From Nitrososphaerota archaeon (GTDB lineage: Archaea; Thermoproteota; Nitrososphaeria; Nitrososphaerales; Gagatemarchaeaceae): a stretch of DNA of 32,034 nt. Positions 1,294 through 26,400 of this stretch are shown piece after piece. Below the pieces are notes generated by a model that made no database searches, was not told where the DNA came from, and saw only the letters and a list, made by a program, of their open reading frames with translations. The first letter of the stretch is position 1; each line of letters opens with the position of its first letter. The stretch covers positions 1-32,034 of the forward strand of contig JACQFO010000007.1 in assembly GCA_016200025.1 (NCBI GenBank), in the 5' to 3' direction. A program made the position numbers and the translations under genes.

Positions 1294-1300
1294 CTTAAAG
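1294..1300 (-). promoter_or_regulatory. Candidate TATA box (CTTTAAG on the minus strand) for the Fe-S oxidoreductase gene
   Basis: It is the only A/T-rich element in the 62-nt etfA/Fe-S spacer. Its centre lies about 27 nt upstream of ATG 1270, which is the archaeal TATA-to-TSS distance and implies a leaderless or near-leaderless mRNA. Confidence 0.4.
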
Positions 1301-1332
1301 ACTTGTTCGGTTCGAATTTTCCAGAAGATGCG

Positions 1333-2274
1333 TCAGGCCCTCTTGGTCCCGGAGAGAGCCGAACTGAGCGCAGGGACGACCTGGTAGAGGTCGCCGACAA
1401 TCCCGTAATCTGAAGACTGGAAGATCGGGGCGTCCTTGTCAGTGTTTATCGCCACTACGATCTTTGAGTCCTTCATGCCCGCCACGTGCTGCAGCTGCCC
1501 CGATATGCCGATTGCGATGTACAAGTCGGGCCGGACGGTCAACCCTGTCAATCCGATGTGATGTTCCTCCGGCAGCCAGCCCAGGTCTGAGGAGAGCGGC
1601 CTCGAGCATCCGAGGGCGCCTCCCATCTGCTTGGCCAGGTCGCCGAGCATGGCCAGGTCTTCCTTCTTCCTAACGCCTCTGCCCGCGGAGACGATCAGCT
1701 TCGCCTGTTTCAGGTCGACGGCCCCGGCCTCCTTCTTGACTCTCCCCGTCCTCCTGGTCGTGCCCGGCAGGTCTCCCACGTCGAACTCCTCCACCCTGTC
1801 CGAGGATCCGGTCCCCCAGGCAAAGAGACCCGGCTTCACGGTGACCACGTTCGGGAACTTGCACTCGATGGTCGCGAGGACCCTTCCTGCGTAGGCGCTT
1901 CTCTCCGCTGTCAGGGTGTCCCCATGGGCGGTAAGTTTGACAGCGTCTGAGATGCAGCCTACCCCGAGCTTGGCAGCCAGCCTAGCCGCGACCTCCCTCC
2001 CGTCCCTGGTGGAACCCACGAGAATCGCAGTCGGCCGGAGCTTCTCGGCGGCCCGGCGAAGGGCCTCGGCCGCAGTTTCAGAGGAGAACCCCGGTCCGGA
2101 CCCGCTCTTCAGGAGCAGCTTGCCCCCCGAAGCTTGGACGGAACCGCGCAGCTGACCCAGCTCTACGACCTCGGACCGGGCTCCCAGCTGGGTGGCTACG
2201 CTCTCCGACGCACCCGAGACCTCGTTGGCTAGGCTTTCGACCTCCGAGTAGGCCCAGACCGCTGGCTCATCCAT
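1333..2274 (-). CDS. etfA: Electron transfer flavoprotein, alpha subunit
   Basis: 313-aa ORF. The C-terminal FAD-binding region ...IAIGISGQLQHVAGMKDSKIVVAINTDKDAPIFQSSDYGIVGDLYQVVPAL is the classic EtfA signature. Its ATG (2274-2272) shares one base with the TGA of etfB. Confidence 0.93.
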   Translation of the reverse strand: MDEPAVWAYSEVESLANEVSGASESVATQLGARSEVVELGQLRGSVQASGGKLLLKSGSGPGFSSETAAEALRRAAEKLRPTAILVGSTRDGREVAARLAAKLGVGCISDAVKLTAHGDTLTAERSAYAGRVLATIECKFPNVVTVKPGLFAWGTGSSDRVEEFDVGDLPGTTRRTGRVKKEAGAVDLKQAKLIVSAGRGVRKKEDLAMLGDLAKQMGGALGCSRPLSSDLGWLPEEHHIGLTGLTVRPDLYIAIGISGQLQHVAGMKDSKIVVAINTDKDAPIFQSSDYGIVGDLYQVVPALSSALSGTKRA

Positions 2275-3035
2275 CAGAGGACGCCTTCCTTTCGCAATGC
2301 ATCAAGAAGCTTCCTCGCAGCGTCGCCGGGGGAACCCTCGATGATCAGGTGCTTCCGGGCGGCCTGCTGTGCGGACATGGAGACGACCGTGGGGGCTGAG
2401 CGGGACTCGGCGCTCCCCGCTTCGTCCGGGCGCCTCTCCTCGATGGGCTTCTTGGCTGCTTGCATTATCTGTATGAGCGTAGGGTATCTTGGCTCGTTGA
2501 TTTCGCTGACGACCGCGATGACGAGGGGCGTCCGGGCCTCGACTGTCTCCACGCTGTCCTCCAGGGCCCTTTCAGCAACAACGCCTCCATCCTTGGCTTC
2601 GACCTTCCTTGCGTAGCCCACGTAGGGCACGCCTAGAAGCTCCGCCAGCATCGGCGGCACCTGGCCAGTGTATGTGTCCGAGGACCCTTCGGAACAGATG
2701 ACGAAGTCGTAGGGCCCGTCCTTGCGGATCGCGTCCGCCAGCCGTCCCGCCGTTCGGAGGGAGTCTCCAGTCGCAGTGCCCGGGATGATCAGGACACCTT
2801 TGTCGGCGCCCATGGCGAGGGCCTCTTTGACCGTCTTCCTTGCCTCCGGCGGTCCCACGGTCAGAATAGTGACTTCTCCTCCCACGGATGAGCGGATCCT
2901 CAGGGCCTCCTCCACCGCGTTCTTGTCGAAGGTGCTCATCTTGTATGCTGCACCTTCAATCAGGGGCCTCCCGCTGGAATCCACCTTGAGCTCCGTCTCG
3001 TCGACCGCGTGCTTCACGCAGACGGCCAGCTTCAT
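2274..3035 (-). CDS. etfB: Electron transfer flavoprotein, beta subunit
   Basis: I trimmed track ORF 2274..3284 to the internal ATG at 3035. MKLAVCVKHAVDETELKVD...NAVEEALRIRS...ALAMGADKGVLI is a canonical EtfB N-terminus. The upstream 83 codons are R/G-rich and overlap the ACAD gene. The ATG overlaps the ACAD stop (ATGA). Confidence 0.92.
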   Translation of the reverse strand: MKLAVCVKHAVDETELKVDSSGRPLIEGAAYKMSTFDKNAVEEALRIRSSVGGEVTILTVGPPEARKTVKEALAMGADKGVLIIPGTATGDSLRTAGRLADAIRKDGPYDFVICSEGSSDTYTGQVPPMLAELLGVPYVGYARKVEAKDGGVVAERALEDSVETVEARTPLVIAVVSEINEPRYPTLIQIMQAAKKPIEERRPDEAGSAESRSAPTVVSMSAQQAARKHLIIEGSPGDAARKLLDALRKEGVL

Positions 3036-4198
3036 GCGGAGCGCGCCAGTTCCCTGCTCGCTATCAGCAGCCGCAGGACCTCTGAAGTACCCTCTCCTAT
3101 TGTCAGGAGGCGGGCGTCCCTCCAGTGCCTGTGAACGTCCTCGGTCGTGTATCCATGCCCGCCGAAGACCTGTATCGCCATGTCGCAGACCCTTACCGCC
3201 ATCTCGGTGGCGAAGACCTTGGCCTGGGCAGCCTCGGAAGAGTACTCCACCGAGCCTTCCCTCGCCCGAGCGGCGTGCATGCACAGGAGCCTTCCAGCCG
3301 TGATGCCTGTCTTCATGTCTGCGATCTTCTCCTTGGTGAGCTGGAAGTCCGAGATGGGCGAGCCGAAGGCCCTGCGCTGTTTGCTGTATGAGAGGGCCTT
3401 GTCATAGGCTGCCCGCGCTACGCCCACGCAGAGCGACCCCATGACTATCCTGCTGCCGCTGAGCATCCTCTTCGCATATTCGAACCCCTGGCCCTCCTCC
3501 CCGACAAGGGCGTCGGCCGGGACCTCGCAGTCGACGAACCTCACCTCCGAGGTCCTGGACCCGCGCATCCCAAGCTTGGGGAGGTCCTCCCCGAAGCTCA
3601 TTCCGGGGTTCGGGCTCTCGACTATGAAGCTCGACGGGCCCTTCTCGGTCGCTGCGAAGACGAAGTAGACATCGGCCTCGCCCGCGTTGGTGATGAAGGC
3701 TTTTGAACCGTTGATCATGTAGCCCCGAGGAGTCTTCTTCGCCTTCGTGGCCATGGTCTTAGCGTCCGAACCAGAGGTGGGTTCCGTGAGGCTGAATGAC
3801 GCGACCTTCTTCCCGGAGATGATGTCGGACACGTATTTCCTCTTCTGGTCTTCGCTGCCAAACTGGAAGATCCCTTCGGCCGCCGTGTTGTGAATCGCGA
3901 CGCTGAGCGCCATGCCAGCGTCCGCGTACCCTGCCAACTCTGCAGCGAGGACATAGACGCCGAAGGGCAACCCGAGGCCCCCGTACTCCTTCGGGTAGCC
4001 GATCTGGCAGAATCCTTGCTCGAGGAGCCGCGCCCTGGTCGAATCCATCTTCGCGGACCCATCGTCGAACTTCTGGGAGAGGGGAAGGACCTTCTCCTCC
4101 ATGAACGCCCCCAGCGCACCGAGCAACTCCGCATAGACTTCGTGCTGGGCGTAGTTGGACTTCAACAGCAGGCGATGCTCGGACGTCAAAAGCACCAT
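3032..4198 (-). CDS. Acyl-CoA dehydrogenase (SCAD/MCAD-like)
   Basis: 388-aa ORF with FSLTEPTSGSDA, the FITNAGEADVYFVFA region and C-terminal RDARLLTIGEGTSEVLRLLIA. A Glu sits at the MCAD-type catalytic-base position (GEGT). The gene is translationally coupled to etfB. Confidence 0.92.
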   Translation of the reverse strand: MVLLTSEHRLLLKSNYAQHEVYAELLGALGAFMEEKVLPLSQKFDDGSAKMDSTRARLLEQGFCQIGYPKEYGGLGLPFGVYVLAAELAGYADAGMALSVAIHNTAAEGIFQFGSEDQKRKYVSDIISGKKVASFSLTEPTSGSDAKTMATKAKKTPRGYMINGSKAFITNAGEADVYFVFAATEKGPSSFIVESPNPGMSFGEDLPKLGMRGSRTSEVRFVDCEVPADALVGEEGQGFEYAKRMLSGSRIVMGSLCVGVARAAYDKALSYSKQRRAFGSPISDFQLTKEKIADMKTGITAGRLLCMHAARAREGSVEYSSEAAQAKVFATEMAVRVCDMAIQVFGGHGYTTEDVHRHWRDARLLTIGEGTSEVLRLLIASRELARSA

Positions 4199-4258
4199 CG
4201 GACTTTCGTGCGCGCCCTCGCTCCGAGTGATTTAATGGTTCTTGTGAGAGATGAGAAA

Positions 4259-4267
4259 TTCTAAAAG
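4259..4267 (+). promoter_or_regulatory. Candidate TATA box (TTCTAAAAG) for the PrpD-family operon
   Basis: An A/T-rich element centred about 27 nt upstream of ATG 4290. This argues for 4290 rather than 4251 as the start. A second A/T element, TTTAAT at 4231-4236, may serve the divergent ACAD-etfBA operon. Confidence 0.4.
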
Positions 4268-4289
4268 AAGAGCCCCCGATGGCGGCCGC

Positions 4290-5672
4290 ATGACACTTGC
4301 CGCCCGCCTGGCCCGTTACGTCCTCTCTCTGAGATATTCCGACCTCGACGCGGGCACGGTGAGGGCGACGAAGGTCAGGGTCATCGATGCGCTGGGGTGC
4401 GCCATAGGGGCCTGCGGGGCGCCGCCCGTCGCCGAAGCCAGGAGGGCCGTCGCTTACATGTCACCAAAGGGGCCGTCTACGATACTTGGGACGGCCAGTT
4501 CGGCGTCCCCGGACCTCGCCGCCTTCGTCAACGGGCTCATGATCAGATACTTCGACTTCAACGATACGTACCTGTCCAAAGAGCCTGCCCATCCGAGCGA
4601 CAATCTTGGTGCGGTCTTCGCGGTCGCAGAGTCAGAGAGGGCCAGCGGGAAGGAGCTCATCGCCGCTGCGGTCGCAGCCTACGAAGTTCAGTGCAGGCTC
4701 TGCGACGCCGCAGATATCAGGCACAGGGGCTGGGACCATGTCAACTACGGGCTCGTTTCTACGCCCCTGGCCTCTGCGAAATTGATGGGGCTTGAGCTGG
4801 GGAAGGCGACGCAGGCGGTGAACATCGCCCTCAACTCCCACATCGCGATGAGGCAGGTGAGGGCAGGCGACCTCTCGATGTGGAAGGGCGCGTCCTTCGC
4901 CAACGCGGCAAGGAACGGCGTCTTCGCCGCGCTCCTGGCCAGGGAAGGGTTCACCGGACCCGCGCCGATCTTCGAAGGCGAGATGGGATTCTTCAAGCAG
5001 GTTTCAGGCCCGTTCAGGCTCGACGTCTCCCGCTTCGGCGGCGGAAGGGTGCCCTACAGGGTCAACGACACCTACATCAAGTTCTGGCCGGCCGAGTACC
5101 ACGCCCAGACAGCGATCTGGGCGGCCCTCGAACTGAGGAAGAAGGTAGAGGACATCGGTTCCATCGCTTCGGTCCTCGTCCAGACCCATGAAGCCGGATA
5201 TACCATACTTGCCGGGAGAGAGAAGTGGAAGCCCAAGACCAAGGAGACTGCGGACCACAGCCTACCGTACATCGTGGGAATGGCACTTGCCAAGGGCATC
5301 ATCGACAACTCGACCTACTCCGAGAAGAACCTGGGGGACCCTCGAAACTTGGGGATGGTCAAGAAAGTCAGGGTGAAAGAAGACCGCAGGCTCACTGCGA
5401 TGTACCCCCTAGGGGGCATGCCGAACAGGGTCACCATCGGCTTCGTCGGTGGCGGATCCGCCTCGGCTGAGGTCGCGGTCCCGAGGGGGCACCCGAAGAA
5501 CCCGATGTCCGTGCGCGAGGTGGAGTCGAAGTTCATGGGCCTCACGAGGAGACAGCTGGGCGAAGACCGTGCCCGGGAAGCCCTGAAGTCGCTGTGGCAG
5601 CTGGAATCCGCGGCGGACATAGGTCGGGTCCTGGGGCTGCTTGACGTCCGCGAAGCCCGCTCAAAGCCTTAA
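4290..5672 (+). CDS. MmgE/PrpD family protein (2-methylcitrate dehydratase-like)
   Basis: MTLAARLARYVLSLRYSDLDAGTVRATKVRVIDALGCAIGA is a typical PrpD-family N-terminus. The length of about 460 aa fits the family. The track ORF begins at 4251; I prefer ATG 4290 because of the TATA spacing. Confidence 0.85.
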   Translation: MTLAARLARYVLSLRYSDLDAGTVRATKVRVIDALGCAIGACGAPPVAEARRAVAYMSPKGPSTILGTASSASPDLAAFVNGLMIRYFDFNDTYLSKEPAHPSDNLGAVFAVAESERASGKELIAAAVAAYEVQCRLCDAADIRHRGWDHVNYGLVSTPLASAKLMGLELGKATQAVNIALNSHIAMRQVRAGDLSMWKGASFANAARNGVFAALLAREGFTGPAPIFEGEMGFFKQVSGPFRLDVSRFGGGRVPYRVNDTYIKFWPAEYHAQTAIWAALELRKKVEDIGSIASVLVQTHEAGYTILAGREKWKPKTKETADHSLPYIVGMALAKGIIDNSTYSEKNLGDPRNLGMVKKVRVKEDRRLTAMYPLGGMPNRVTIGFVGGGSASAEVAVPRGHPKNPMSVREVESKFMGLTRRQLGEDRAREALKSLWQLESAADIGRVLGLLDVREARSKP

Positions 5673-5698
5673 AGCGCGAACGCCGCGCCCGTGCATCG

Positions 5699-6685
5699 AT
5701 GAAGCTAGCGCTCGGCTTCAACCCTGTCATGAGCGCACGGGAGATGGCCGGACTCGCGGTCAAGGCGGAAGCCTTGGGATACGACTCGATGTGGATGCAC
5801 GAGAGCCTCTTCCAACGCGACGTGGTAACCTACATCGCGGCCATGACCTCCGCGACCAAAACGATCCGCGTGGGCTCTGGGATCATGAACACGTTCACTC
5901 GCCACCCGGTGGCCGCTGCCTCGACATTCGCTACGCTCTCCGAGCTGTCCGGAGGAAGGGTCATCTTCGGGCTCGGGCTTGGCAGCTTCCCTACGATCCC
6001 TCTGATAGGACAGCAGATCTTCCCAGTGGAGAAGACTCGTCCCCTCAGAAGGATGAAGGAGTATCTGGAGGTCGTGAGAAGAGTCTGGAGCGGGGAGAAG
6101 GTCGAGTACGAGGGCGAGTTCTTCAAGGTCCACAACCTCACCCTAGGATTCAAGGTCGAGCGCCAGATCCCTGTCTTCCTGGCTTCGATGTCGCCGAAGA
6201 CGCAATCCTACGCGGCGACGGTCGCCGACGGGGTCATCCTATCCCCGGCCCTGAGCACAGTCAAAGTGACGAAGGCCATGATAGGGAACGTCGTTTCTGG
6301 CGAGGCCAGAAGCGGTAGGAAGGTCGAGCGCGCCTCATACATGATGACCTCCGTCGACCCTGACCCGGCCAAGGCGAAGGAGGCGGTCAGGAACTACTAC
6401 TTCTTCGTCTACCAACTTTCCGACGTCGTGAAGCCCGAAGCGCTGCTACCATATGGAGTGACCGAGGTGAGGCTCGCTCCCATGAAGGAGGCTTGGAAGC
6501 GCGGCGACGTGGCTGAGGCGAAACGCCTCATCCCGGACGAAGCGATCGATGCGCTGGCTGTAGTGGGAGACGAAGACCACGTCCGAGACCGCGTCAAAGA
6601 ATATCTGGACGTCGGGGTGACGCTCCCCATTCTCATGCCCATCGGAAACGTAGAGTACGCGATGTCGACGCTGGCGCCTAGGTAA
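5699..6685 (+). CDS. Luciferase-like monooxygenase (LLM) class oxidoreductase, F420- or flavin-dependent
   Basis: 328 aa. MKLALGFNP...LAVKAEALGYDSMWMHESLF...IRVGSGIMNTFTRHP...LSGGRVIFGLGLGS is the LLM/Mer-family pattern. The gene starts 26 nt after the PrpD-family stop. Confidence 0.85.
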   Translation: MKLALGFNPVMSAREMAGLAVKAEALGYDSMWMHESLFQRDVVTYIAAMTSATKTIRVGSGIMNTFTRHPVAAASTFATLSELSGGRVIFGLGLGSFPTIPLIGQQIFPVEKTRPLRRMKEYLEVVRRVWSGEKVEYEGEFFKVHNLTLGFKVERQIPVFLASMSPKTQSYAATVADGVILSPALSTVKVTKAMIGNVVSGEARSGRKVERASYMMTSVDPDPAKAKEAVRNYYFFVYQLSDVVKPEALLPYGVTEVRLAPMKEAWKRGDVAEAKRLIPDEAIDALAVVGDEDHVRDRVKEYLDVGVTLPILMPIGNVEYAMSTLAPR

Positions 6686-7609
6686 GTGCGGACGTTGGGC
6701 GGCGAAAAGGTCCGGCTCATCCCGAGGCTTGTCAGGGCCCAGTTCACTCCTATCATGATAGCCCCGGTGGTCCTTGGGGCTGCCCTGGCATGGCACGTGG
6801 ACGGAGCCTTTTCTCCTTCGCTCTTCCTCCTCGTGGCGCTGGGGGCAGTCTGCCTGCACCTGGCCGCGAACGCCATCGACGACGTCTATGACTACGTGAA
6901 CGGGACGGACGCAGTCGCTGAGAAGATGTTCCCGCCCGACGCGCCGGGATGGAAGCCGATTCCGAGGGGTTCCTTGACCCTCGGGGACGCCTTCAAGGTC
7001 TCGTACATGCTGTACGGTGCTTCACTGGCCATCGGAGCCGCACTCTCTTTTGTCGTAGGATGGTACGCGCTGGCAATAGCGCTGCCCGGAATCATTCTGA
7101 GCTACTTCTACACTGCCCCGCCCCTCCGCCTCGACTACCGTGGGCTCGGGCTGGGCGAGCTCTCGATCCTCCTGGGCTTCGGCCCGATACCCGCACTGGG
7201 GGCCTACTATGTCATGGCGGGCCACCTCTCGGCGCTGCCCGTCCTCGTCGCTGTCCCGACTGGACTCATGACCGTGTCAGTCTTGATCTCCCACGACCAG
7301 ATCTTCTACGATGTGTACCTGCAGTCAGGCAAGAGGTCGCTCACCGTCGTCCTCGGCAGGAGGAGGGCCTCGATCCTCCTGACTCTCCTGGGCGCCGCCG
7401 CCTATTTGATGGTCGCCGCGATGGTCGCAGTCCAGATAGCCCCGACTCTGGGGCTCCTCGCACTCGGGGGCCTTCCGTTGTTCTTCAAGCTGGCGGACCT
7501 CCGCGGGGCCGTCAGGACCCCCCCGGAGTACGGGCGGAGGACCAGCCTTGCGTTCTTGCAGTCGACGATCTTTACGGGTCTCCTGGCCGCAGGACTTGTC
7601 CTTGGCTGA
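6686..7609 (+). CDS. UbiA-superfamily prenyltransferase, MenA-like (1,4-dihydroxy-2-naphthoate polyprenyltransferase-like)
   Basis: 307 aa and polytopic. The first Asp-rich motif is LAANAIDDVYDYVNGTD (N-x3-D-x3-D...G-x-D). The second motif is HDQIFYDVYLQSGKRSLTVVLG. The GTG start immediately follows the TAA of the LLM gene. Confidence 0.8.
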   Translation: MRTLGGEKVRLIPRLVRAQFTPIMIAPVVLGAALAWHVDGAFSPSLFLLVALGAVCLHLAANAIDDVYDYVNGTDAVAEKMFPPDAPGWKPIPRGSLTLGDAFKVSYMLYGASLAIGAALSFVVGWYALAIALPGIILSYFYTAPPLRLDYRGLGLGELSILLGFGPIPALGAYYVMAGHLSALPVLVAVPTGLMTVSVLISHDQIFYDVYLQSGKRSLTVVLGRRRASILLTLLGAAAYLMVAAMVAVQIAPTLGLLALGGLPLFFKLADLRGAVRTPPEYGRRTSLAFLQSTIFTGLLAAGLVLG

Positions 7610-8237
7610 ACCCGCGGCCGGGAACTCGGCAAGATGGAGCGCCGCCCTGGTGGCTGCGGCAGGGGTCTCGATGGTCGGGCTCTTCCTGCTGCCCCCCCGC
7701 TACTTCGTCGTTGGGACCTTCGTTGTGACGTCAGCAATGGCAGCGGCTGCGTACTCGGCCGGGGCCTACGGCAAGCCATCCGTGCTGAAACCCAGGTCCA
7801 TTGCAATCGGATTGCTCTCGGCAGCCCTTCTGTATGGGGTCTTCTACGCGGGCAACGCAGCCATCGTGGCTTTGAAGCCCCTGGGCCTGGACCCAGCCGC
7901 CGAGTCCGCGATCTACGGGCTGATCGCTTCGCCGTCCAACCCCCTCGCGCTGCAGGGCCTCATCCTGCTCTTCGATTCGTTGGGGTACGAGTCGCTCCTC
8001 CGGGGGGTGGTCCAAGCCCGACTCTCGCCTCGCTTGGGAGTGGGCGCCGCCCCGGCGGTCGCGCTCCTCGACGCTGGGCTCCACGCAGCCACCTTCAACC
8101 CGCTTTGGGTGGCGACCACCTTCGTGGCGGACCTGGTCTGGGGCCTGACCTACCGCTATGGCAGAGGCCTCACCGCGAGCACGACGAGCCATTTCGTCTG
8201 GGACGTGGCCATCTTCATCGTGCGCCCAATTACGTAA
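7602..8237 (+). CDS. CPBP family (CAAX protease / Abi) intramembrane metalloprotease
   Basis: A hydrophobic protein with YESLLRGVV (E-x3-R motif), LHAATFN and HFVWD (H-x3-D) motifs. The start is uncertain: TTG 7602, GTG 7650 or ATG 7671. The track ORF start at 7548 would overlap the prenyltransferase gene by 62 nt. Confidence 0.7.
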   Translation: MAEPAAGNSARWSAALVAAAGVSMVGLFLLPPRYFVVGTFVVTSAMAAAAYSAGAYGKPSVLKPRSIAIGLLSAALLYGVFYAGNAAIVALKPLGLDPAAESAIYGLIASPSNPLALQGLILLFDSLGYESLLRGVVQARLSPRLGVGAAPAVALLDAGLHAATFNPLWVATTFVADLVWGLTYRYGRGLTASTTSHFVWDVAIFIVRPIT

Positions 8238-8248
8238 CCCGAGAAACC

Positions 8249-8256
8249 AATAATAT
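8249..8256 (+). promoter_or_regulatory. Candidate TATA box (AATAATAT) for the thiolase-like/AACS/DUF35 operon
   Basis: It is the only A/T-rich stretch in the 43-nt spacer. Its centre is about 28 nt upstream of GTG 8281. Confidence 0.45.
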
Positions 8257-8280
8257 CATCGTCCGTGTGGGACCGACGCC

Positions 8281-9411
8281 GTGGTCGAACGGGTAGAAAT
8301 CATAGGAGTCGGGTTCGAGGGCTTCAGGCCGTCGATAACCGACCTCTCGACCAGGGAGCTGATGTACGAGGCGGCTTCGAAGGCGTACCATGACGCCGGG
8401 GTGGACCCGAGGAAAGACATCGGCTCGTTCATTTCATGCACGGAGGACCTCTGGGAGGGCTGGAGCATAGCTGATGAAATGGTCCCCGACCAACTCGGCG
8501 GAGCTGGGAGGCCGGTCTGCACGGTTCCGGCCGACGGGATCGTGGGCCTCGGGCATGCCATCATGCACATCAGGTCCGGCGTCGCGGACGTCGTCGCGGT
8601 CGAAGCCCACAGCAAGGTGGCCGACGTCCTGGACAAGACCGCGGTCGAGAACCTCGCCCTTGACCCAGTATTTCACAGGGCCACGGGGGCGAATTCCGAT
8701 GTTCTCGCAGGGCTGGAAATGAGCTCGTTCATGGAGGAGACCGGGACGAAGAGAGGGGAACTCAGCCAGGTCGTCAGATCCGCGAAGCGCAAGGCCATGC
8801 GCAACGGACGAGCGAGCTACGGCGCTACGCTGGAGTTGGAGGAGATCGACTCTTCCGAGCCCTTGGCGCTGCCTTTGAGAAGGCTGGACAGGCCCGAGTT
8901 CGCAGAGGCTGCAGTCGTGATAGTACTCGCCTCTGGAAGCTGGGCCAAGAGGCACCGCAAGGACGGCGTATTCATCGATGGGCTGTCGTGGCGCTCTGCG
9001 ACCCCATGGTTCGAGGCGGGCGGCGTCAAGACAGCCAGATACATGCAAGACTCCTACCGGTCCGTGATGAAGCAGTCGGGGCTCAGAGACCTTTCCCAGT
9101 TCGACGTCCTCGAGGTCGACGATTCATACTCCTTCAAGCTGGTTCAGCACCTGATGTCGATGGGAGTGAGCAAGGTAGGAGTCATGGGAATGCTGAAGGA
9201 AGGGACGGCGCTCAACCCGAGCGGAGGCTCACTTGGGACCGGGCATTTGATCGAGGCGACCGGGTCGCACAAGGTCCTGGAATGCGTCCTCCAGGTCAGG
9301 GGAACCGCAGGCGGAAATCAGGCGAAAGGCGTCGGCAGGGCCTTCGCCAGTTCTTGGAGAGGCAACCCGACTGGCGCAGGGGCCGCGATAGCCCTCTCGG
9401 TGGGGAATTGA
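8281..9411 (+). CDS. Thiolase-fold protein, SCP-x/archaeal thiolase-like, paralog A (nucleophilic Cys apparently replaced)
   Basis: 376 aa. VEIIGVGFEGFRP...ELMYEAASKAYHDAGVDP... is a thiolase N-terminus. The C-terminal region is NPSGGSLGTGHLIEATGSHKVLECVLQVRGTAG. Hand alignment to the canonical thiolase in this window puts VPADG where VCGSG is expected. Confidence 0.85.
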   Translation: MVERVEIIGVGFEGFRPSITDLSTRELMYEAASKAYHDAGVDPRKDIGSFISCTEDLWEGWSIADEMVPDQLGGAGRPVCTVPADGIVGLGHAIMHIRSGVADVVAVEAHSKVADVLDKTAVENLALDPVFHRATGANSDVLAGLEMSSFMEETGTKRGELSQVVRSAKRKAMRNGRASYGATLELEEIDSSEPLALPLRRLDRPEFAEAAVVIVLASGSWAKRHRKDGVFIDGLSWRSATPWFEAGGVKTARYMQDSYRSVMKQSGLRDLSQFDVLEVDDSYSFKLVQHLMSMGVSKVGVMGMLKEGTALNPSGGSLGTGHLIEATGSHKVLECVLQVRGTAGGNQAKGVGRAFASSWRGNPTGAGAAIALSVGN

Positions 9412-9415
9412 GGGC

Positions 9416-10573
9416 ATGAGAAGAGTCGCGGTGATAGGCGCCGGCATGACCAAGTTCAGAAGGAGGATGCTGGAGACCGGGAGGGAGCTGTCGTTCGAGG
9501 CGAGCAGGATGGCGCTCGACTCGGCCGGCATGGAGATCAAGGACGTGGAGTCCGTGGTGATGGGAACAGCTCCCGACGCCTTCGACGGGATCCACATGAA
9601 GGGAGACTACCTGATGGACGGGGCGGGCGGCACGGACAAACCGTACAGCAGGGTCTACGTGGGCGGCGGGACAGGGGTCTTCGCACCCGTGGCCGGCTGG
9701 TGGCACGTCGCCTCGGGTCTCTTCGACAGCTGCCTGGTGGTCGGGGAGGAGAAGATGTCCCCCCTTCGCCCCCATCCTCAGTACGCCTTCTGGAGCATCT
9801 TCGACCATACACTCGAAAGGCCCCTGGGCGTCACGCTGCTCTGGATCTTCTCGCTTGAGATGAGGCGGTACATGCACGTCCATGGAGTGACGGAGGAGGA
9901 CATCGCGCTGGTGTCTGTCAAGAACAAGGGGAACGCCATGGACCATCCTTGCGCTCAGCTGCCGGCCCGGATAACGGTCGACGACGTGATGAAGAGCGAA
10001 CCCATATGCCTGCCAGTCAAGAGGCTCGACGTCTCGCCCACCTCTGACGGCGCAGCAGCAGTAATGCTGGTCTCCGAGGAAGTGGCGAGGAAGTACACCG
10101 ACGACCCGGTCTGGGTCGACGGAGTTGGTTGGAACGTCGACACCCAGTATTGGACCAACAGGGACCTGTACTACCCGAGGTATGTCGAGAAGGCAGCGAG
10201 GATGGCCTACAAGATGGCGAAGATCGACAACCCCAGGAAACAAATCGACTTCGCCGAGGTCTACGACCCATTCGATTACAAAGAGCTGCATCACCTGGAG
10301 GGAGTCCTCCTGGCTGACAAGGGGGAAGCCCCGAAGCTCACCCGAGAGGGAGTGACCCAGCGCGACGGGGACCTGCCCGTGAACCCGTCGGGCGGCCTCC
10401 TCGGTGTCGGGAACCCGATCGCTGCCGCCGGGACCATGAAGGTCTGCGAGCTCTTCTGGCAGCTCCGAGGCGAGGCCGGCAAGAGGCAGGTGAAGAAGGA
10501 GGTCAACAGAGGGCTCGCCCAGGCCTGGGGCGACCTGCTGCAGGTGGGGACCGTGATAACGATGAGAAGGTAG
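9416..10573 (+). CDS. Thiolase-fold protein, SCP-x/archaeal thiolase-like, paralog B (nucleophilic Cys and C-terminal His apparently replaced)
   Basis: 385 aa. N-terminus MRRVAVIGAGMTKF...; VGGGTGVFAPVAGWWHVASGLFDSCLVVGEEKMS aligns without gaps to VCGSGLKAV...GGMESMS. The C-terminal NPSGGLLGVGNPIAAAGTMKVCELFWQLRGEAGKRQV has GN where GH is expected. The ATG lies 4 nt after the paralog A stop. Confidence 0.85.
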   Translation: MRRVAVIGAGMTKFRRRMLETGRELSFEASRMALDSAGMEIKDVESVVMGTAPDAFDGIHMKGDYLMDGAGGTDKPYSRVYVGGGTGVFAPVAGWWHVASGLFDSCLVVGEEKMSPLRPHPQYAFWSIFDHTLERPLGVTLLWIFSLEMRRYMHVHGVTEEDIALVSVKNKGNAMDHPCAQLPARITVDDVMKSEPICLPVKRLDVSPTSDGAAAVMLVSEEVARKYTDDPVWVDGVGWNVDTQYWTNRDLYYPRYVEKAARMAYKMAKIDNPRKQIDFAEVYDPFDYKELHHLEGVLLADKGEAPKLTREGVTQRDGDLPVNPSGGLLGVGNPIAAAGTMKVCELFWQLRGEAGKRQVKKEVNRGLAQAWGDLLQVGTVITMRR

Positions 10574-10576
10574 GCC

Positions 10577-12547
10577 TTGGCTTCGGATGGCAAGGCTCCG
10601 CTGTGGGAGCCAGACGAGAAGCGGAAAGCGGAGACGAACGTGGCCCGGTTCGCGGAATCCTTGGGGAAGACTGCGCTCGGCGCCTCGGAGTACGACCAGC
10701 TTTGGAGGTGGTCCGTCGAGGACCTCGAAGGCTTCTGGGGAGCGGTCTGGAGCCATCATCGCCTGAAGTCGAGCGCCCCCTACGCGCGGGTCCTCCGAGA
10801 AAGAAAGATGCCGGGCGCAGTCTGGTTCGAGGGAACCCGTCTGAACTATGCGGAGAGGGTCCTGAACGCGGCCGATGGCCCGGGCCCTGCGCTGATGTCG
10901 CTCAATGAAGCTGGAGAAGTCAGGGAGATGAGCTGGCAGGAGCTCAGGAGACAGGTCTCCTCGGTTGCGGCATGGCTCAAAGACGCGGGCGTTGGCAGGG
11001 GGGACAGGGTCGCGGCCTACGCCTCAAACGTGCCTGAGGCGTTGGTCTCCTTCCTGGCGGCCGCCAGCATCGGGGCCGTCTGGTCTAGTTGTTCTTTGGA
11101 CTTTGGGGCGCCGAGCGTGAAAGACAGGTTCAGCCAGATAGCCCCGAAGGTGCTCGTCGCCTCCACCTCCTACTCCTACGGCGGGAGGCTTTTCGAGAGG
11201 GGCGAAGGAGTTGCTGAAGTGGCGGCATCCCTCCCTTCCCTGGAGAGGACCGTAATCCTACCCGGGGGCCGGGCGCCTTCGTCGCTGAAAGGCGCCGCAG
11301 ACTGGGATGAGCTTCTGGGGCGGGGTTCGGCGCAGACCTTCGAGCAGGTCCCTTTCGACCATCCCCTCTGGATCCTCTACTCGTCATGGACGACGGGCCT
11401 CCCAAAGCCCATTGTGCACGGCCACGGGGGCATACTCGTCGAGCACCTCAAGGCCCTCTCACTTCACAACGACGTCCGCCCCTCCGACCGCTTCTTCTGG
11501 TACACGACGACCGGCTGGATGATGTGGAACTATCTGGTCGGAGGACTGTTACTCGGCGCGACCGTGGTGCTCTACGATGGGAGCCCGTCGTATCCGGATG
11601 CGAACGCCCTGTGGACGCTCGCCGAGAGGACCGGGGCCTCTATTCTCGGGACCAGCGCGGCCCACCTGGGCCTCTGCATGAAGGCCGGGGTTTCACCACG
11701 GAGCACCCACAGGCTGAGTGCCCTGAGATGCATAGGTTCCACCGGGTCGCCCCTTTCTCCCGAGGCCTTCTCCTGGGTCTACGCAGAGGCAAAGGACGAC
11801 GTCTGGCTTGCCTCGATAAGCGGAGGCACCGACCTCTGCACAGCGTTCGTCGGAGGCTGTCCTGTGCTCCCGGTCTACGCAGGGGAGATCCAGTGCAGAT
11901 GCCTGGGGGCGAAGGTGGAGGCCTTCGACGAAAAGGGGGCATCTGTAGTCGGGAAGACCGGCGAGCGCGTCCTCACCGAGCCGTTGCCGAGCATGCCGCT
12001 GTACTTCTGGGGCGACCCCGACGGCGCCCGCTACCGGGAAAGCTACTTCGACGACTTCCCTGGCGTCTGGAGGCATGGGGACTGGTTCGAGGTAACGCCC
12101 AGGGGCACCTGCATCATCCATGGGCGATCGGACGCGACGATAAAGAGGATGGGCGTGCGAATCGGAACCGGCGAGATCTACAGGGTCGTCGAGGCACTGC
12201 CGGAGGTGGCTGACTCCCTGGCCGTCGACCTGGGGAGCGGGGGACAAGGCGACGTGCTCCTCTTCGTCTGCCTGAGGCAAGGGGTGAAGATGGACGATGA
12301 CCTAGAACGGAGAATCAAGGAAAAGGTCAGGAGGGACCTTTCCCCAAGGCACGTCCCGGACAGGGTCGTCGAGGCGCCGAGCATACCGAGGACCATCAAC
12401 GGCAAGAAGTTAGAGGTCCCCATCAAGAGGATCCTCCTGGGGGCTGACCCCATGAAGGCGGTCAACATCGGGTCCCTGGCCGACCCCCAATCGGTCGATT
12501 ACTACTCCAGGCTCGCGAAGACGATCGCGGTAGGTGGAAAAGTTTGA
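10577..12547 (+). CDS. Acetoacetate-CoA ligase (acetoacetyl-CoA synthetase family, AMP-forming)
   Basis: 656 aa. The N-terminal region LWEPDEKRKAETNVARFAESLG...YDQLWRWSVEDLEGFWGAVW is typical of AACS. The P-loop reads YSSWTTGLPKPIVHGHGG. The C-terminal region includes IPRTINGKKLEVPIKR. The TTG start lies 3 nt after the TAG of paralog B. Confidence 0.85.
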   Translation: MASDGKAPLWEPDEKRKAETNVARFAESLGKTALGASEYDQLWRWSVEDLEGFWGAVWSHHRLKSSAPYARVLRERKMPGAVWFEGTRLNYAERVLNAADGPGPALMSLNEAGEVREMSWQELRRQVSSVAAWLKDAGVGRGDRVAAYASNVPEALVSFLAAASIGAVWSSCSLDFGAPSVKDRFSQIAPKVLVASTSYSYGGRLFERGEGVAEVAASLPSLERTVILPGGRAPSSLKGAADWDELLGRGSAQTFEQVPFDHPLWILYSSWTTGLPKPIVHGHGGILVEHLKALSLHNDVRPSDRFFWYTTTGWMMWNYLVGGLLLGATVVLYDGSPSYPDANALWTLAERTGASILGTSAAHLGLCMKAGVSPRSTHRLSALRCIGSTGSPLSPEAFSWVYAEAKDDVWLASISGGTDLCTAFVGGCPVLPVYAGEIQCRCLGAKVEAFDEKGASVVGKTGERVLTEPLPSMPLYFWGDPDGARYRESYFDDFPGVWRHGDWFEVTPRGTCIIHGRSDATIKRMGVRIGTGEIYRVVEALPEVADSLAVDLGSGGQGDVLLFVCLRQGVKMDDDLERRIKEKVRRDLSPRHVPDRVVEAPSIPRTINGKKLEVPIKRILLGADPMKAVNIGSLADPQSVDYYSRLAKTIAVGGKV

Positions 12548-12577
12548 AATGCGCAGGCGGGCGGGAGTGAAGCGGGC

Positions 12578-13087
12578 GTGAGCTCCAGGATAAGGAAGTA
12601 CCCGGGCACGGAGATGGACCTCAAGGAGATTGAGGCCGGCAAGTTCCTGTTCTCAAGCTACGAGACTGTCCTAAGGTATTCGTTCACCTCGGGGGTCGCC
12701 ATCAGCAGGTTCCTCGAAGGGCTCAAGGAAGGACAGCTCTGGGCCAGGGAATGCGACAAGTGCGGCCGCATCCTTATCCCACCGCGCATGTACTGCGAGG
12801 AGGACTTTAGGTCGACGGACAGGTGGGTCCGCGTCCGAGACACAGGGAAGGTGAACACGTATTCAATCAGCTACGTCAACAACGACGCCAGCAGAAGGAG
12901 GACTCCGGTGGTGGTCTCTGTCATAGAGATAGACGGCGCCTCAAAGGGGATGGGCATCCTGCACCTCCTCGGCGAGGTGGACCCGCGAAAGGTGACCGTG
13001 GGGATGAAGGTCGAGGCGGTCTGGAAGCCCAAGAAGGAAAGACGCGGCGCGATAACAGACATCGTGTACTTCAGGCCGAGGCGATGA
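12578..13087 (+). CDS. DUF35 family protein (Zn-ribbon + OB-fold), paralog A
   Basis: 169 aa. The rubredoxin-like ribbon is CDKCGRILIPPRMYCEEDF, with the 4th ligand position Asp rather than Cys. An OB-fold-like C-terminal half follows (GKVNTYS...GMKVEAVWKP). GTG start, with GGAGTGA about 8 nt upstream as a possible SD. ATG 12614 is an alternative start. Confidence 0.8.
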   Translation: MSSRIRKYPGTEMDLKEIEAGKFLFSSYETVLRYSFTSGVAISRFLEGLKEGQLWARECDKCGRILIPPRMYCEEDFRSTDRWVRVRDTGKVNTYSISYVNNDASRRRTPVVVSVIEIDGASKGMGILHLLGEVDPRKVTVGMKVEAVWKPKKERRGAITDIVYFRPRR

Positions 13088-13548
13088 GCATGCCGATGAA
13101 AGAAAGGATCACGAGCGTCGACCGCCAAAGGACCTGGGAAGGCGAGATACCCTTCCACTACGAATACACTGCCGGGGTTTCAGGGGAGAGGTTCCTCCGG
13201 GGCCTGCAGCGCGGGAAGATCCTGGTGCCGAAGTGCGGGAACTGCGGCAGGTCATACCTGCCCCCCAGGGCCTACTGCACCAACTGTTTCCTCGAGATCA
13301 CGTCCTACGTTGAATTGAAGCCCACGGGCAGGGTGTCCGCGCTCGCGGAGAGCCATGTGGATTTCCAGGGGAGGCGCTCGAAGCCCAGGACCTTCGCCTT
13401 CGTCACCTTTGCCGGGGTCACCGGGGGCCTCGTCCATTTCGCAGAAGGGAAAGGACTGCGGATAGGGTCGAGCGTCAGGGCGAAGTTCAAGCCAGCAGCC
13501 AAGAGGAAGGGGACGCTGCTCGACATCGAGACCTTCGTGAAGACCTAG
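13084..13548 (+). CDS. DUF35 family protein (Zn-ribbon + OB-fold), paralog B
   Basis: I trimmed track ORF 12823..13548 to ATG 13084, giving MSMPMKERI.... The complete ribbon is CGNCGRSYLPPRAYCTNCF, followed by GRVSALAESHVD...GSSVRAKFKP. The ATG overlaps the TGA of paralog A (ATGA). Confidence 0.8.
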   Translation: MSMPMKERITSVDRQRTWEGEIPFHYEYTAGVSGERFLRGLQRGKILVPKCGNCGRSYLPPRAYCTNCFLEITSYVELKPTGRVSALAESHVDFQGRRSKPRTFAFVTFAGVTGGLVHFAEGKGLRIGSSVRAKFKPAAKRKGTLLDIETFVKT

Positions 13549-13549: not shown

Positions 13550-14467
13550 TCATCTGCTGACGGGCGTGAGCCACTTTGAGTATCTCTTGGCTTTGCCGTG
13601 GACTATCGAATCGTACAGCTTCCTTATCTTGTCCGTAATCGGGAAGCCGTTGTACCCCACCTTCCTCCCGTCCACTTCGCGGATCTTGGCGATGCCGACC
13701 GCGGTCCCGCTGAAGAAGAGCTCGTCCGACGTGTAGAGCTCTTCCTTAGTGGAATCGTTCCTGTAGAACTTGATCTTGAGGTCCTGGGCCACCTGGATCA
13801 CCGTGTCCCTCGTTATCCCCCTCAGGATGCCGGAGCTGGCCGGTGGGGTGCTCAGGATGTCGTCCTTCACCCTGAAGATGTTCTCCCCTGGGCCCTCGGC
13901 CACCATGCCGTGGCTGTTCAGCATTATCGCCTCGTCGTATCCGGCCGCGAGCGCTTCCATCTTCGCGAGCGCAGAGTTCGCGTAGTTGGCTGCGCACTTC
14001 GCCTGGATCGGGAGGGCACGGGAATCGATCCTTACCCAGCTGGAGATGGTCGCGCGGACCCCGCCGTCGAGGGCCTTCTGCCCAAGGTAGGGGCCCCACT
14101 CCCATGAAGCGATCGCCACCGCGATCTTGTTCTTGAGCGGGTTGAGCCCCATCTCGCCGTAGCCCGTGTAGGCTATGGGTCGGATGTAACAACTCTTGAC
14201 GCCGTTCTTTCTGACCAGTTCGAGGCACGCCTGGGTCAGCTCTTTGGCAGAGAACCGAAGGTCCATCCTGTAGATCTTCGCGCTGTTCAGGAACCTCTCG
14301 ATGTGCTCCTTGAGCCTGAAGACCGCGGGTCCTTCGGTAGTGGGGAAGCACCTAATCCCTTCGAAGACAGCGTACCCGTAGTGAAGGGCGTGGGTGAGGA
14401 TATGGACCTTCGCCTCATCCCAGTCCACCAGCTTGCCGTCCATCCAAATCTTGGAGAGGGACTTCAA
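13550..14467 (-). CDS. ilvE: Branched-chain amino acid aminotransferase
   Basis: KIWMDGKLVDWDEAKVHILTHALHYGYAVFEGIRCF, ...EEGPGENIF and ...LFFSGTAVGIAKIREVDGR are typical class IV aminotransferase / IlvE motifs. The track ORF starts at TTG 14563, upstream of the TATA element. I prefer TTG 14467 (MKSLSKIWMDG...), with ATG 14443 as an alternative. Confidence 0.88.
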   Translation of the reverse strand: MKSLSKIWMDGKLVDWDEAKVHILTHALHYGYAVFEGIRCFPTTEGPAVFRLKEHIERFLNSAKIYRMDLRFSAKELTQACLELVRKNGVKSCYIRPIAYTGYGEMGLNPLKNKIAVAIASWEWGPYLGQKALDGGVRATISSWVRIDSRALPIQAKCAANYANSALAKMEALAAGYDEAIMLNSHGMVAEGPGENIFRVKDDILSTPPASSGILRGITRDTVIQVAQDLKIKFYRNDSTKEELYTSDELFFSGTAVGIAKIREVDGRKVGYNGFPITDKIRKLYDSIVHGKAKRYSKWLTPVSR

Positions 14468-14530
14468 CAGGTGAGATTCGGGCGAATGGACATGGTATTT
14501 AGGGATACCACTTCGCCGCGCATCGAGCCG

Positions 14531-14538
14531 TTTATTAT
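14531..14538. promoter_or_regulatory. Candidate shared/bidirectional TATA box (TTTATTAT) between ilvE and the thiolase gene
   Basis: It is the only A/T-rich element in the divergent spacer. Its centre is about 28 nt upstream of thiolase ATG 14563, which implies a leaderless mRNA. The same element read on the minus strand (ATAATAAA) lies upstream of ilvE. Confidence 0.5.
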
Positions 14539-14562
14539 CGCCAGTTGTCGACGCCCGGGACA

Positions 14563-15741
14563 ATGCCCGACCCGGTCATCATTTCAGCCTGCAGGACCGC
14601 CATCGGCAAGTTCGGCAAGAGCCTCCTCGGGGTCAGCGCACCCAAGCTCGGGTCCGTAGTCGTAAAGGAGGCCCTGCGCAGGGCGAAGGTTCCCCCCTCC
14701 GACGTGGACGAGCTGCTCTTTGGCAACGTAGTCTCGGCGGGGCTCGGGCAGAATCCGGCGCGCCAGGTTTCGATACAAGCAGGCATTCCTTTCAACGTGG
14801 GTTCTGTCACGATAAACAAAGTCTGCGGGTCGGGCCTCAAAGCGGTAATGCTCGCCGCCCAGTCGATCAAGGCCGGGGACAACGAGATAGTCGTCGCCGG
14901 CGGAATGGAGAGCATGAGCAACGCACCCTACCTGGTAAAGGGGGCTCGATGGGGGATCAAGTTCGGGGACGCGAGGCTCCTCGACGCCATGATAGTCGAC
15001 GGTCTCTGGGACGCGTACCACGGATACCACATGGGGGTCACTGGGGAGATGGTCGCCAAGAAATTCAAGATAAGCAGGAAAGAGGCCGACGAGTTCGCGT
15101 ATTCCAGCCACACCAAGGCCGCCCGCGCATCCAAAGAGGGCGCCTTCGACGATGAAATCGTGAAGGTCGAGATCGAAAGAGAGGACGGGGAGACTCACGA
15201 ATTCGGAACCGACGAATGCGTTCGAGGGGACACCACCATGGAGAAGCTTTCGAAGCTCAAGCCGGTCTTCAAGTCGGGGGGCATCCTCACCGCGGGCAAC
15301 TCTTCACAGCTCAGCGACGGCGCGTCCGCCCTCGTCGTCGCCTCCCAGGAGGCAGCTGACAGAATCGGGGCGAAGCCCATCGCCAGGATAAGGTCCTACG
15401 GAACCGGCGGCCTGGAGCCATCGAGGGTGATGGAGGCCCCGATCCCCGCGACCCGGGCGCTCCTGAAGGCCACCAAGATTACGGTCGACGACCTGGACCT
15501 CTTCGAGCACAACGAAGCCTACTCGACCGCTTCCATCGCGGTCAGACGGGCTCTGGGCGTGGACGAAGCCAAGTTCAACGTGAGCGGCGGCGCGGTTGCT
15601 CTCGGGCATCCCATCGGCTGCAGCGGAGCGAGGGTCCTGACGACCCTGATCTACGGCCTCAAGAGGACCCGGGGGAGGACGGGCCTGGCGACCCTTTGCC
15701 TGGGCGGAGGCAACGCAGTCTCCATGGTCATCGAGAGGTAG
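14563..15741 (+). CDS. Acetyl-CoA C-acetyltransferase (canonical thiolase II)
   Basis: MPDPVIISACRTAIGKFG...; nucleophile motif INKVCGSGLKAV; NEAYS; GGAVALGHPIGCSGARV; C-terminal CLGGGNAVSMVIER. All canonical catalytic residues are present. The track ORF starts at TTG 14545; I prefer ATG 14563. Confidence 0.93.
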   Translation: MPDPVIISACRTAIGKFGKSLLGVSAPKLGSVVVKEALRRAKVPPSDVDELLFGNVVSAGLGQNPARQVSIQAGIPFNVGSVTINKVCGSGLKAVMLAAQSIKAGDNEIVVAGGMESMSNAPYLVKGARWGIKFGDARLLDAMIVDGLWDAYHGYHMGVTGEMVAKKFKISRKEADEFAYSSHTKAARASKEGAFDDEIVKVEIEREDGETHEFGTDECVRGDTTMEKLSKLKPVFKSGGILTAGNSSQLSDGASALVVASQEAADRIGAKPIARIRSYGTGGLEPSRVMEAPIPATRALLKATKITVDDLDLFEHNEAYSTASIAVRRALGVDEAKFNVSGGAVALGHPIGCSGARVLTTLIYGLKRTRGRTGLATLCLGGGNAVSMVIER

Positions 15742-26389: not shown

Positions 26390-26400
26390 CGTTTCACGCG

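Follow-up and report, generated by a model that had tools for sequence, protein, structure and literature searches.

Ltp2 and Sal are thiolase folds of the SCP2 type that lack the nucleophilic cysteine and, bound to proteins of the DUF35 family, act as steroid side-chain aldolases (PMC12329534). In their pathways an acyl-coenzyme A (acyl-CoA) dehydrogenase and a hydratase act first, and retro-aldol cleavage by the aldolase then yields acetyl- or propionyl-CoA; Ltp2 and CtSal carry a glycine at the nucleophile position and a catalytic tyrosine in a YDHF or YDCY motif, the general acid being Tyr344 in Ltp2 and the motif residue Cys304 in Sal (PMC12329534). Ltp3 and Ltp4 of actinobacterial sterol catabolism are adjacent paralogous thiolase-like ‘lipid-transfer proteins’; the passages of PMC10832528 that concern them, citing Wilbrink 2012, present them as proposed aldol-lyases that take a branch off a carboxylated, hydrated and branched side chain as propionyl-CoA, a step analogous to that of 3-hydroxy-3-methylglutaryl-CoA (HMG-CoA) lyase, with a function deduced from genetics only. 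DUF35 proteins themselves are known as scaffolds onto which additional enzymes are recruited (10.1101/2024.07.05.601840; PMC12329534 discussion). Here we analyze an operon located at positions 8281-13548 of a 32,034-nucleotide stretch of DNA from a Nitrososphaerota archaeon (contig JACQFO010000007.1; the whole stretch is hereafter called the window), which encodes two cysteine-less thiolase-fold paralogs (A and B), an acetoacetate-CoA ligase and two DUF35 proteins (DUF35-1 and DUF35-2, hereafter D1 and D2). We tentatively favor, at somewhat less than an even chance, the reading that the A-B-D1-D2 cassette encodes a heteromeric, DUF35-clamped, non-thiolytic 3-hydroxyacyl-CoA lyase of short or branched acyl-CoA catabolism.

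The five genes are co-directional, in the order A, B, ligase, D1, D2:

8249 to 8256, plus strand: TATA-box-like element AATAATAT, read from the sequence and predicted only
8281 to 9411, plus strand: paralog A, GTG start, 376 amino acids, PRK06066-like thiolase fold
9416 to 10573, plus strand: paralog B, 385 amino acids, thiolase fold of the PRK06065 family
10577 to 12547, plus strand: acetoacetate-CoA ligase (AMP-forming, ACS family), TTG start, 656 amino acids
12578 to 13087, plus strand: DUF35-1, 169 amino acids, N-terminal helix, zinc ribbon and OB fold
13084 to 13548, plus strand: DUF35-2, 154 amino acids, zinc ribbon and OB fold, start inside the ATGA overlap

Spacers of 4, 3 and 30 nucleotides separate the genes and D1 and D2 share a 4-nucleotide ATGA overlap, the open reading frame (ORF) coordinates and the sequence giving the same values as a first-pass annotation of this DNA. 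The element AATAATAT lies 25-32 nucleotides 5′ of the GTG codon of A, in a 43-nucleotide spacer behind the stop codon of an Rce1-like gene (8237). The ligase scores 824 bits against TIGR01217 (equivalog cut-off 521) and 937 bits against NF002937, which identifies it as an acetoacetate-CoA ligase, with a predicted substrate specificity. The nearest relatives are found in Nitrososphaerales metagenome genomes. An antisense ORF of 487 amino acids (9296-10759, minus strand) covers the end of A, the entire B gene and the first part of the ligase gene, and comparable antisense ORFs recur at other high-GC loci. Clusters of such ORFs look ‘conserved’ because they shadow conserved genes, and are artefacts of GC-rich coding sequence.

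Both A and B matched the Pfam domains Thiolase_N and Thiolase_C_1, from which we assign them a thiolase fold with N- and C-terminal domains. B scored 680 bits against NF004721/PRK06065, above the cut-off of 455, this family carrying no functional name; the score of A against NF004722/PRK06066 (377 bits) is under the cut-off of 516, yet this was still its top match, the runner-up reaching 149 bits. The profiles of the two families are those of clear paralogs (hhalign probability 100%, 28% identity). Catalytic residues were assigned using phmmer alignments to the solved thiolases 6esq, 7yvy, 6hsj and 7pxp_C, a comparison of a 23-sequence A-family profile with the PDB, and an alignment with 35 canonical thiolase representatives, the thiolase motifs being called CxS, HDxF and GHx in PMC12960953. 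The position of the nucleophilic cysteine in the CxS motif is occupied by Pro83 in A and by Gly84 in B; that of the HDCF motif reads D280-D-S-Y in A and Y283-D-P-F in B; and the histidine of the GHP motif is retained in the A protein of the window (H322) and replaced by Asn333 in B. Where B reads G, Y and N, all 35 canonical representatives read C, H and H. The A-family profile matched 6esq_A at 2e-49 with the same residue register as the pairwise alignments. Among solved structures, A comes closest to SCP2-type and archaeal thiolases, and the only KASIII-annotated PDB matches it gives are much weaker (9vbo_E, 1e-24; 1zow_A, 7e-4). The best solved match of B is 7yvy (4e-49), with 6esq_A at 1e-41 and none closer. 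An AlphaFold2 model of B, built on a 20-sequence alignment (82-94% identical), reached a predicted local distance difference test (pLDDT) value of 35 and was unusable.

The same substitutions hold among relatives. Glycine occupies the nucleophile position in 85 of 85 B orthologs, in which YDPF is likewise invariant, as are Asn333 and Pro285. An invariant cysteine is absent from both the A and the B families. The first-pass annotation had placed proline and glycine at the nucleophile position of A and B, respectively, and had called the C-terminal histidine kept in A and changed to asparagine in B; pairwise and profile alignments bear out both assignments. It had also pointed to the cysteine of the VCTVP segment of A as a residue that might yet fill the nucleophile position. 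Residue 80 of A, two upstream of the nucleophile site, reads C in 31, F in 19 and H in 13 of 76 orthologs and is therefore not conserved. Cys80 was rejected as a thiolase nucleophile, since its position varies and its partner residues are gone, and so was a rescue of thiolase activity by the cysteine found at the nucleophile site of Archaeoglobi A orthologs, that site being variable and the partner residues absent. Because A and B are without a nucleophilic or acid/base cysteine and histidine pair, a complex of the two should be unable to act as a thiolase.

We searched for relatives of B with a pattern scan over one genome per species, which found at least 590, and placed B by tblastn in high-GC loci, where simple ORF calling gave long antisense ORFs. 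The best 80 of these relatives are 66-94% identical to the B protein of the window. Their archaeal hosts belong to Nitrososphaerota, Bathyarchaeia, Asgard lineages, Archaeoglobi, Thermoplasmatota and Geoarchaeota, and their bacterial hosts to Chloroflexota, Actinomycetota, WOR-3, Deltaproteobacteria, Spirochaetota and Krumholzibacteriota. The complete cassette occurs in the order A-B-D1-D2 at 67 of 85 loci, most of the others ending at contig ends, and these complete loci include members of Nitrososphaerota, Bathyarchaeia, Asgard, Archaeoglobi, Sulfolobus, Chloroflexota, Actinomycetota, WOR-3 and Spirochaetota. Median gaps are 6 nucleotides between A and B, 7.5 between B and D1 and 3 between D1 and D2. 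Two DUF35 genes lie behind B at 74 of the 85 loci, and 80 loci have an ortholog of D1 as the first DUF35 gene of the cassette. With this gene order repeated in dozens of species-level genomes, chance is far from sufficient to account for the arrangement. A tblastn search of PLSDB plasmids with B returned only paralogs of less than 40% identity; the orthologous cassette was not found there.

A ligase gene separating B from D1 is restricted to the window and six close relatives (L004, L006, L009, L010, L011 and L014). It was inserted in a single subclade of Nitrososphaerales, so acetoacetate alone is not enough to define what the complex does. On a bacterial contig (JBJNVZ010003167.1, locus L008, positions 2585-4780), B, D1 and D2 are fused into a single protein of 731 amino acids (P0242) with an A-type gene ahead of it, which is direct evidence that these proteins act together. 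Strict co-occurrence and this natural fusion support a physical complex of A, B and the DUF35 proteins, whose assembly we infer. Of the claims made in the first-pass annotation, the synteny expected in relatives was found, and the A/B/DUF35 complex that it had suggested is supported; its unit of two paralogs and two DUF35 proteins with an embedded ligase stands for the conserved A-B-D1-D2 part, and not for the ligase.

Variants of this organization were also observed. The second zinc ribbon of P0242 is degenerate (WCDE...FCENG). In a Nitrososphaerales genome (GCA_037025065.1, locus L001, positions 5269-11158) in which B is 85% identical to that of the window, the A-B pair stands alone, with DUF35 and ligase genes not alongside, and is preceded on its 5′ side by genes for a biotin-protein ligase and for LamB/YcsF, CT_C_D and CT_A_B proteins (5-oxoprolinase/allophanate-hydrolase-like). 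A relative 46% identical to B belongs to a sister cassette (locus L090, positions 490-4998) with only one DUF35 gene, two CoA-transferase subunits, an A-like protein (YDNY, GNP), a B-like protein (YDPF, GNPI) and an enoyl-CoA hydratase. Heteromeric pairs of cysteine-less thiolase folds thus seem to form a larger superfamily.

Conservation is unevenly distributed within the cassette. Compared over the same 67 loci in which A, B, D1 and D2 are all present, the four proteins differ as follows:

B: mean pairwise identity 70.3%, 156 of 385 positions at least 95% conserved
A: mean pairwise identity 50.7%, 34 of 376 positions at least 95% conserved
D1: mean pairwise identity 52.6%, 23 of 169 positions at least 95% conserved
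D2: mean pairwise identity 40.6%, 13 of 154 positions at least 95% conserved

In the same relatives, B is up to 94% identical to its counterpart in the window and A up to 75%. Residues invariant in B (G83-G84-x-T86-G87, E111-E112-K-M-S115, Y283-D-P-F-D-Y-K-E-L-H-H293, G332-N333-P-I335 and W371-G-D373) concentrate in the former active-site loops GGxTG, EEKMS, YDPFDYKELHH, GNPI and WGD. In A, by contrast, the nucleophile position varies among orthologs (S/P/C/T/G/A), as does that of the GHP histidine (N in 25, H in 21, Y in 21), and the 13 of 76 orthologs with a cysteine at the nucleophile site, mainly from Archaeoglobi, show the pattern C-D-R-N, without the partner residues. A has a near-invariant polar set of its own: D85, E108-x-H110-x-K112, D281 and R360. 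The two paralogs, both described in the first-pass annotation as non-canonical, are indeed cysteine-less, but they are not equivalent: B is the presumed catalytic subunit, under strong constraint, and A is a fast-evolving partner, probably non-catalytic or accessory.

The assembly, chemistry and substrate that we propose for the cassette would be as follows. A and B would form a heterodimer in which a separate DUF35 protein clamps each of the two, as in other complexes of DUF35 proteins with thiolase folds. B would be the catalytic subunit, its thioester-binding loops kept and its active site rebuilt around Gly84, Tyr283 and Asn333; it would bind a short acyl-CoA, stabilize an enolate and make or break a carbon–carbon bond by aldol or retro-aldol chemistry, with Tyr283 as the base, as in Ltp2 and Sal. 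The reaction would convert a 3-hydroxyacyl-CoA into a carbonyl compound and acetyl- or propionyl-CoA. Short or branched acids would thus be activated by a ligase or a CoA-transferase, desaturated by an acyl-CoA dehydrogenase, hydrated and then cleaved by the complex, which would serve where a route through a dehydrogenase and a thiolase is unavailable. In this Nitrososphaerales lineage, an HMG-CoA-lyase-like step is plausible: the cleavage would release acetoacetate, the ligase would re-activate it and the adjacent canonical thiolase would split the resulting acetoacetyl-CoA. The inserted ligase and the adjacent thiolase fit such an acetoacetate-releasing cleavage. Aldol-type chemistry, already suggested in the first-pass annotation, is backed by Gly84 and Tyr283 of B, which fall at the corresponding Ltp2/Sal positions (alignment offsets; PMC12329534), and B may on the strength of these shared residues be called aldolase-like in its working at best. 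A broader version of the same reading, which we regard as doubtful, holds that A-B-D1-D2 is an ancient and widespread 3-hydroxyacyl-CoA lyase, cysteine-free and dehydrogenase-independent, that replaces non-homologous HMG-CoA lyase in leucine/isovalerate catabolism. Its candidate reactions are the cleavage of HMG-CoA into acetoacetate and acetyl-CoA and that of 3-hydroxyisovaleryl-CoA into acetone and acetyl-CoA, and the active site, a composite of both subunits of the heterodimer, would have arisen separately from that of the steroid aldolases. If this were true, archaea and many anaerobic bacteria could shorten short or beta-branched acyl-CoAs in this way.

The gene neighborhood was considered in the window and at the related loci. 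Besides a long-chain-type acyl-CoA ligase gene, the window contains the following genes around the operon:

1333-2274 and 2274-3284, minus strand: electron-transfer flavoprotein alpha and beta subunits, respectively
3032-4198, minus strand: acyl-CoA dehydrogenase
13550 to 14563, minus strand: branched-chain amino-acid aminotransferase (class IV), convergent with the operon
14545 to 15741, plus strand: acetyl-CoA C-acetyltransferase with all canonical catalytic motifs (Thiolase_N, 322 bits; TIGR01930, 454 bits)

The aminotransferase remains adjacent in the ligase-containing relatives, and either this gene (Nitrososphaerales) or one for a 2-oxoacid:ferredoxin oxidoreductase (Sulfolobus) adjoins the cassette in two lineages. 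The sole frequent neighbor of the cassette is an acyl-CoA dehydrogenase gene (35 of 84 loci), often directly 3′ of D2; the remaining neighbors differ from lineage to lineage but agree in theme. An enoyl-CoA hydratase gene lies directly 3′ of the dehydrogenase gene in Geoglobus acetivorans, whose locus also has a short-chain fatty-acid transporter upstream, and in L051. Pairs of CoA-transferase genes are found in Archaeoglobus and in the 46%-identical relative, ACS-type ligases adjoin the cassette in Thermoplasmatota and Sulfolobus, and acetoacetate-type activating enzymes adjoin the cassette or the 46% relative in three lineages. NCBIfam assigns no substrates to the neighboring acyl-CoA dehydrogenases or to the Archaeoglobus CoA-transferases. 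A Hodarchaeota locus carries aldehyde:ferredoxin oxidoreductase and iron-alcohol dehydrogenase genes behind the cassette. Six Bathyarchaeia loci (L025, L026, L031, L032, L037 and L038) encode, upstream and divergently, a thiolase with canonical motifs (ACASS, HDCF, GHP) and a DUF35 protein to go with it, so that the two systems are not redundant. Among the Pfam families of 86 operon-adjacent proteins, of which the top 25 of 109 were considered, no 3-hydroxyacyl-CoA dehydrogenase family was found. A gene of the HMG-CoA-synthase fold was found neither in the window operon nor in the recurrent neighbor clusters nor among these top 25 families, in agreement with the first-pass annotation, and a PhlABC-like complex or one containing HMG-CoA synthase was rejected on these grounds.

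Several observations weigh against a lyase. Genes for methylcrotonyl-CoA carboxylase or methylglutaconyl-CoA hydratase were not found nearby, hydratase genes are adjacent in just about 7 loci and aldehyde-handling genes in about 3, and the ligase is confined to a single subclade. B lacks the acid of Ltp2 and Sal, with Pro285 in place of Cys304/His296 and Asn333 in place of Tyr344; without the acid residues of both known aldolase types, it is not a member of the Ltp2/Sal group. It is also nearer to archaeal thiolases (7yvy, 4e-49) than to Ltp2 (4e-20), which makes the resemblance to the aldolases a convergent one that involves two positions only. Finally, the polar residues specific to A (D85, E108, H110, K112, D281 and R360) imply that A may not be a passive partner, and it may contribute to a composite active site rather than being inert.

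Other explanations were weighed against the same evidence. It is unlikely, in our estimation, that the complex is a decarboxylase or another enolate-forming enzyme without aldol chemistry, acting on malonyl-, methylmalonyl- or 3-oxoacyl-CoA. Tyr283 and Asn333, which occupy exactly both oxyanion-hole positions of the thiolase fold, would then work like the His/His or His/Asn pairs of condensing enzymes, and the related YDCF protein TbSLP decarboxylates malonyl-CoA, although very weakly, and those who described it have come to suspect an aldolase function (PMC12329534). Genes of the methylmalonyl-CoA-mutase type with MeaB flank the cassette or lie within a few kilobases of it in Bathyarchaeia, a deltaproteobacterium and Archaeoglobaceae; in the Bathyarchaeia loci L025, L037 and L038 the set is downstream, directly after D2 only in L025. 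However, these split mutase-type genes are adjacent in just 6 of 84 loci, and a decarboxylase leaves the acyl-CoA dehydrogenase, hydratase, acetoacetate-ligase and CoA-transferase neighbors unexplained. We consider it improbable that A and B are pseudoenzymes and their assembly a non-catalytic acyl-CoA-binding scaffold that organizes, or channels between, the neighboring ligase, dehydrogenase and thiolase. The loss of all canonical catalytic residues, the ability of DUF35 proteins to recruit enzymes (10.1101/2024.07.05.601840; PMC12329534) and the position of the ligase gene inside the operon in this lineage would fit such a scaffold, which is nevertheless hard to square with a mean B identity of 70% across two domains and with invariant residues in former active-site loops; moreover, the partner enzymes differ by lineage while the cassette is constant, and one relative has the A-B pair with no DUF35 or ligase gene beside it.

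A thiolase or acyltransferase with an unconventional nucleophile, either Thr86 or a serine of B or the cysteine of some A orthologs, appears highly improbable. B does have three invariant hydroxyl residues, Thr86, Ser100 and Ser115, a cysteine is present at the nucleophile position in 13 of 76 A orthologs (mainly Archaeoglobi), and databases annotate these proteins as acetyl-CoA acetyltransferases; yet the cysteine-bearing A orthologs are devoid of the His, Cys and His partners (C-D-R-N) at a site that varies freely, we know of no thiolase with an oxygen nucleophile, and the canonical thiolases encoded beside the cassette in the window and in Bathyarchaeia argue for a different job. A 3-hydroxyacyl-CoA lyase agrees better with the pattern of conservation and with the neighbors than any of these three alternatives.

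Analysis of the DUF35 proteins linked the cassette to a solved structure. D1 and D2 both match zf-ChsH2 and OB_ChsH2_C, with both domains of D1 above cut-off, and with the ribbon of D2 above it and its OB domain below (19.4 vs 27.1). D2 matches 3irb over both domains (E 1e-21), and sequence comparison identifies it as orthologous to SSO2064 of Sulfolobus, whose structure (PDB 3IRB) was the first to be solved for a DUF35 protein. A locus of Sulfolobus sp. E5-1-F supports this assignment: it reads acyl-CoA dehydrogenase-A-B-D1-D2, its B is 64% identical to that of the window, its D1 and D2 are reciprocal best matches of the window D1 and D2, and its D2, the last gene of the locus, is 94% identical to SSO2064. 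According to the passages of PMC2954200 on this protein, 3IRB was solved alone as a structural-genomics target and only a general acyl-CoA-binding role was proposed; the passages searched do not mention SSO2061-2063 and describe neither cysteine-less partners nor a four-gene unit. The zinc ligands of D1 in the window are C59, C62, C73 and Asp76, the fourth being Asp in the window and 3 other orthologs and Cys in the other 76 of 80; D2 shows an equivalent Cys-to-Asp change in 11 of 74 orthologs. In S. acidocaldarius, saci_2231-2235 are reported to be up-regulated under nutrient excess and lower on xylose than on xylose with NZ-amine (PMC11486757). By annotation these genes have the same order as the cassette, for which they are candidates.

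Other features of the window were noted. Between the acyl-CoA dehydrogenase gene and the operon, positions 4251-8237 encode a PrpD-like protein, an F420-type luciferase-like oxidoreductase, a UbiA prenyltransferase and an Rce1-like CAAX protease, a block that is syntenic in L004 (6023-9958; closed 1.5-Mb genome CP066694.1), where A is just 71% identical. Two large ORFs on the minus strand (22634-25354) with DUF11/CARDB and TRAP-beta-like domains are likely surface or S-layer-associated and unrelated to the operon. An ORF of 479 amino acids for RadA/Rad51 (25397-26836, minus strand) has its recombinase domain only from residue 233 and overlaps a class II tRNA-synthetase ORF (26428-27732), so its listed start is probably over-extended.

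Our results contrast with the way in which these genes are currently annotated. Hundreds of them are called ‘acetyl-CoA acetyltransferase’ in public databases, and where the metabolism of Asgard, Bathyarchaeia, Thaumarchaeota, Archaeoglobi and Chloroflexota has been reconstructed they are taken for thiolases of beta-oxidation, butyrate or mevalonate pathways, although our residue analysis indicates that A and B genes cannot encode thiolases. The first-pass annotation regarded the arrangement as uncharacterized: a literature search found no paper on the A/B cassette family, but both families are already modeled by NCBIfam (PRK06065/PRK06066), without a function. A protein such as B, about 70% identical across two domains and for which no function, structure or paper was found, represents a substantial gap in central acyl-CoA metabolism. 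If the cassette is a lyase, it would explain how branched acyl-CoAs are handled in organisms without recognizable HMG-CoA lyase or related enzymes, and would mean that aldolase chemistry arose in the thiolase fold a second time, independently. Sulfolobus, one subunit of which has been crystallized (3IRB), and Geoglobus acetivorans are tractable hosts.

Comparison with described systems places the cassette among, and apart from, several relatives. With Ltp2-ChsH2 of Thermomonospora curvata (6OK1) and Sal-Shy of Comamonas testosteroni, B shares Gly84 and the YDxF-type Tyr283; in the alignment of B 4-332 with TcLtp2 8-343 (6ok1), Tyr283 falls on the catalytic base Tyr294 and Asn333 on Tyr344. Ltp2 and Sal, however, are homodimers with one kind of DUF35 protein, fused to a hydratase, whereas the cassette has two paralogs and two free-standing DUF35 proteins, and their steroid context differs from the short-chain or amino-acid metabolism that surrounds the cassette in archaea and anaerobic bacteria. 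TbSLP of Trypanosoma brucei, matched through the kinetoplastid chains 4BI9/4BIA, resembles B in lacking the cysteine nucleophile and in its YDCF motif, but it is eukaryotic, without a DUF35 partner and more distant (1e-23 to B), and it keeps the motif cysteine. Ltp3/Ltp4 are an earlier case of paired thiolase-like proteins proposed as aldol-lyases of branched substrates. They are distant, the lipid-transfer-protein models of NCBIfam giving B 87-190 bits compared with 680 for PRK06065, and, unlike the cassette, they act on steroids and have no DUF35 gene pair described in the passages cited above. The thiolases of the solved archaeal thiolase-DUF35 complexes (6esq, 7yvy) are among the closest relatives of A and B, are encoded in operons and are held by a DUF35 clamp or scaffold; unlike A and B, they are homodimers with catalytic activity in which CxS, HDxF and GHx are all retained. 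Those complexes recruit HMG-CoA synthase, or a reductase and a dehydratase, whereas no HMG-CoA synthase gene was found among the recurrent neighbors of the cassette or the top 25 families of operon-adjacent proteins. The cassette therefore widens the theme of DUF35 proteins joined to thiolase folds to two cysteine-less paralogs with two DUF35 subunits, widely spread and under strong constraint.

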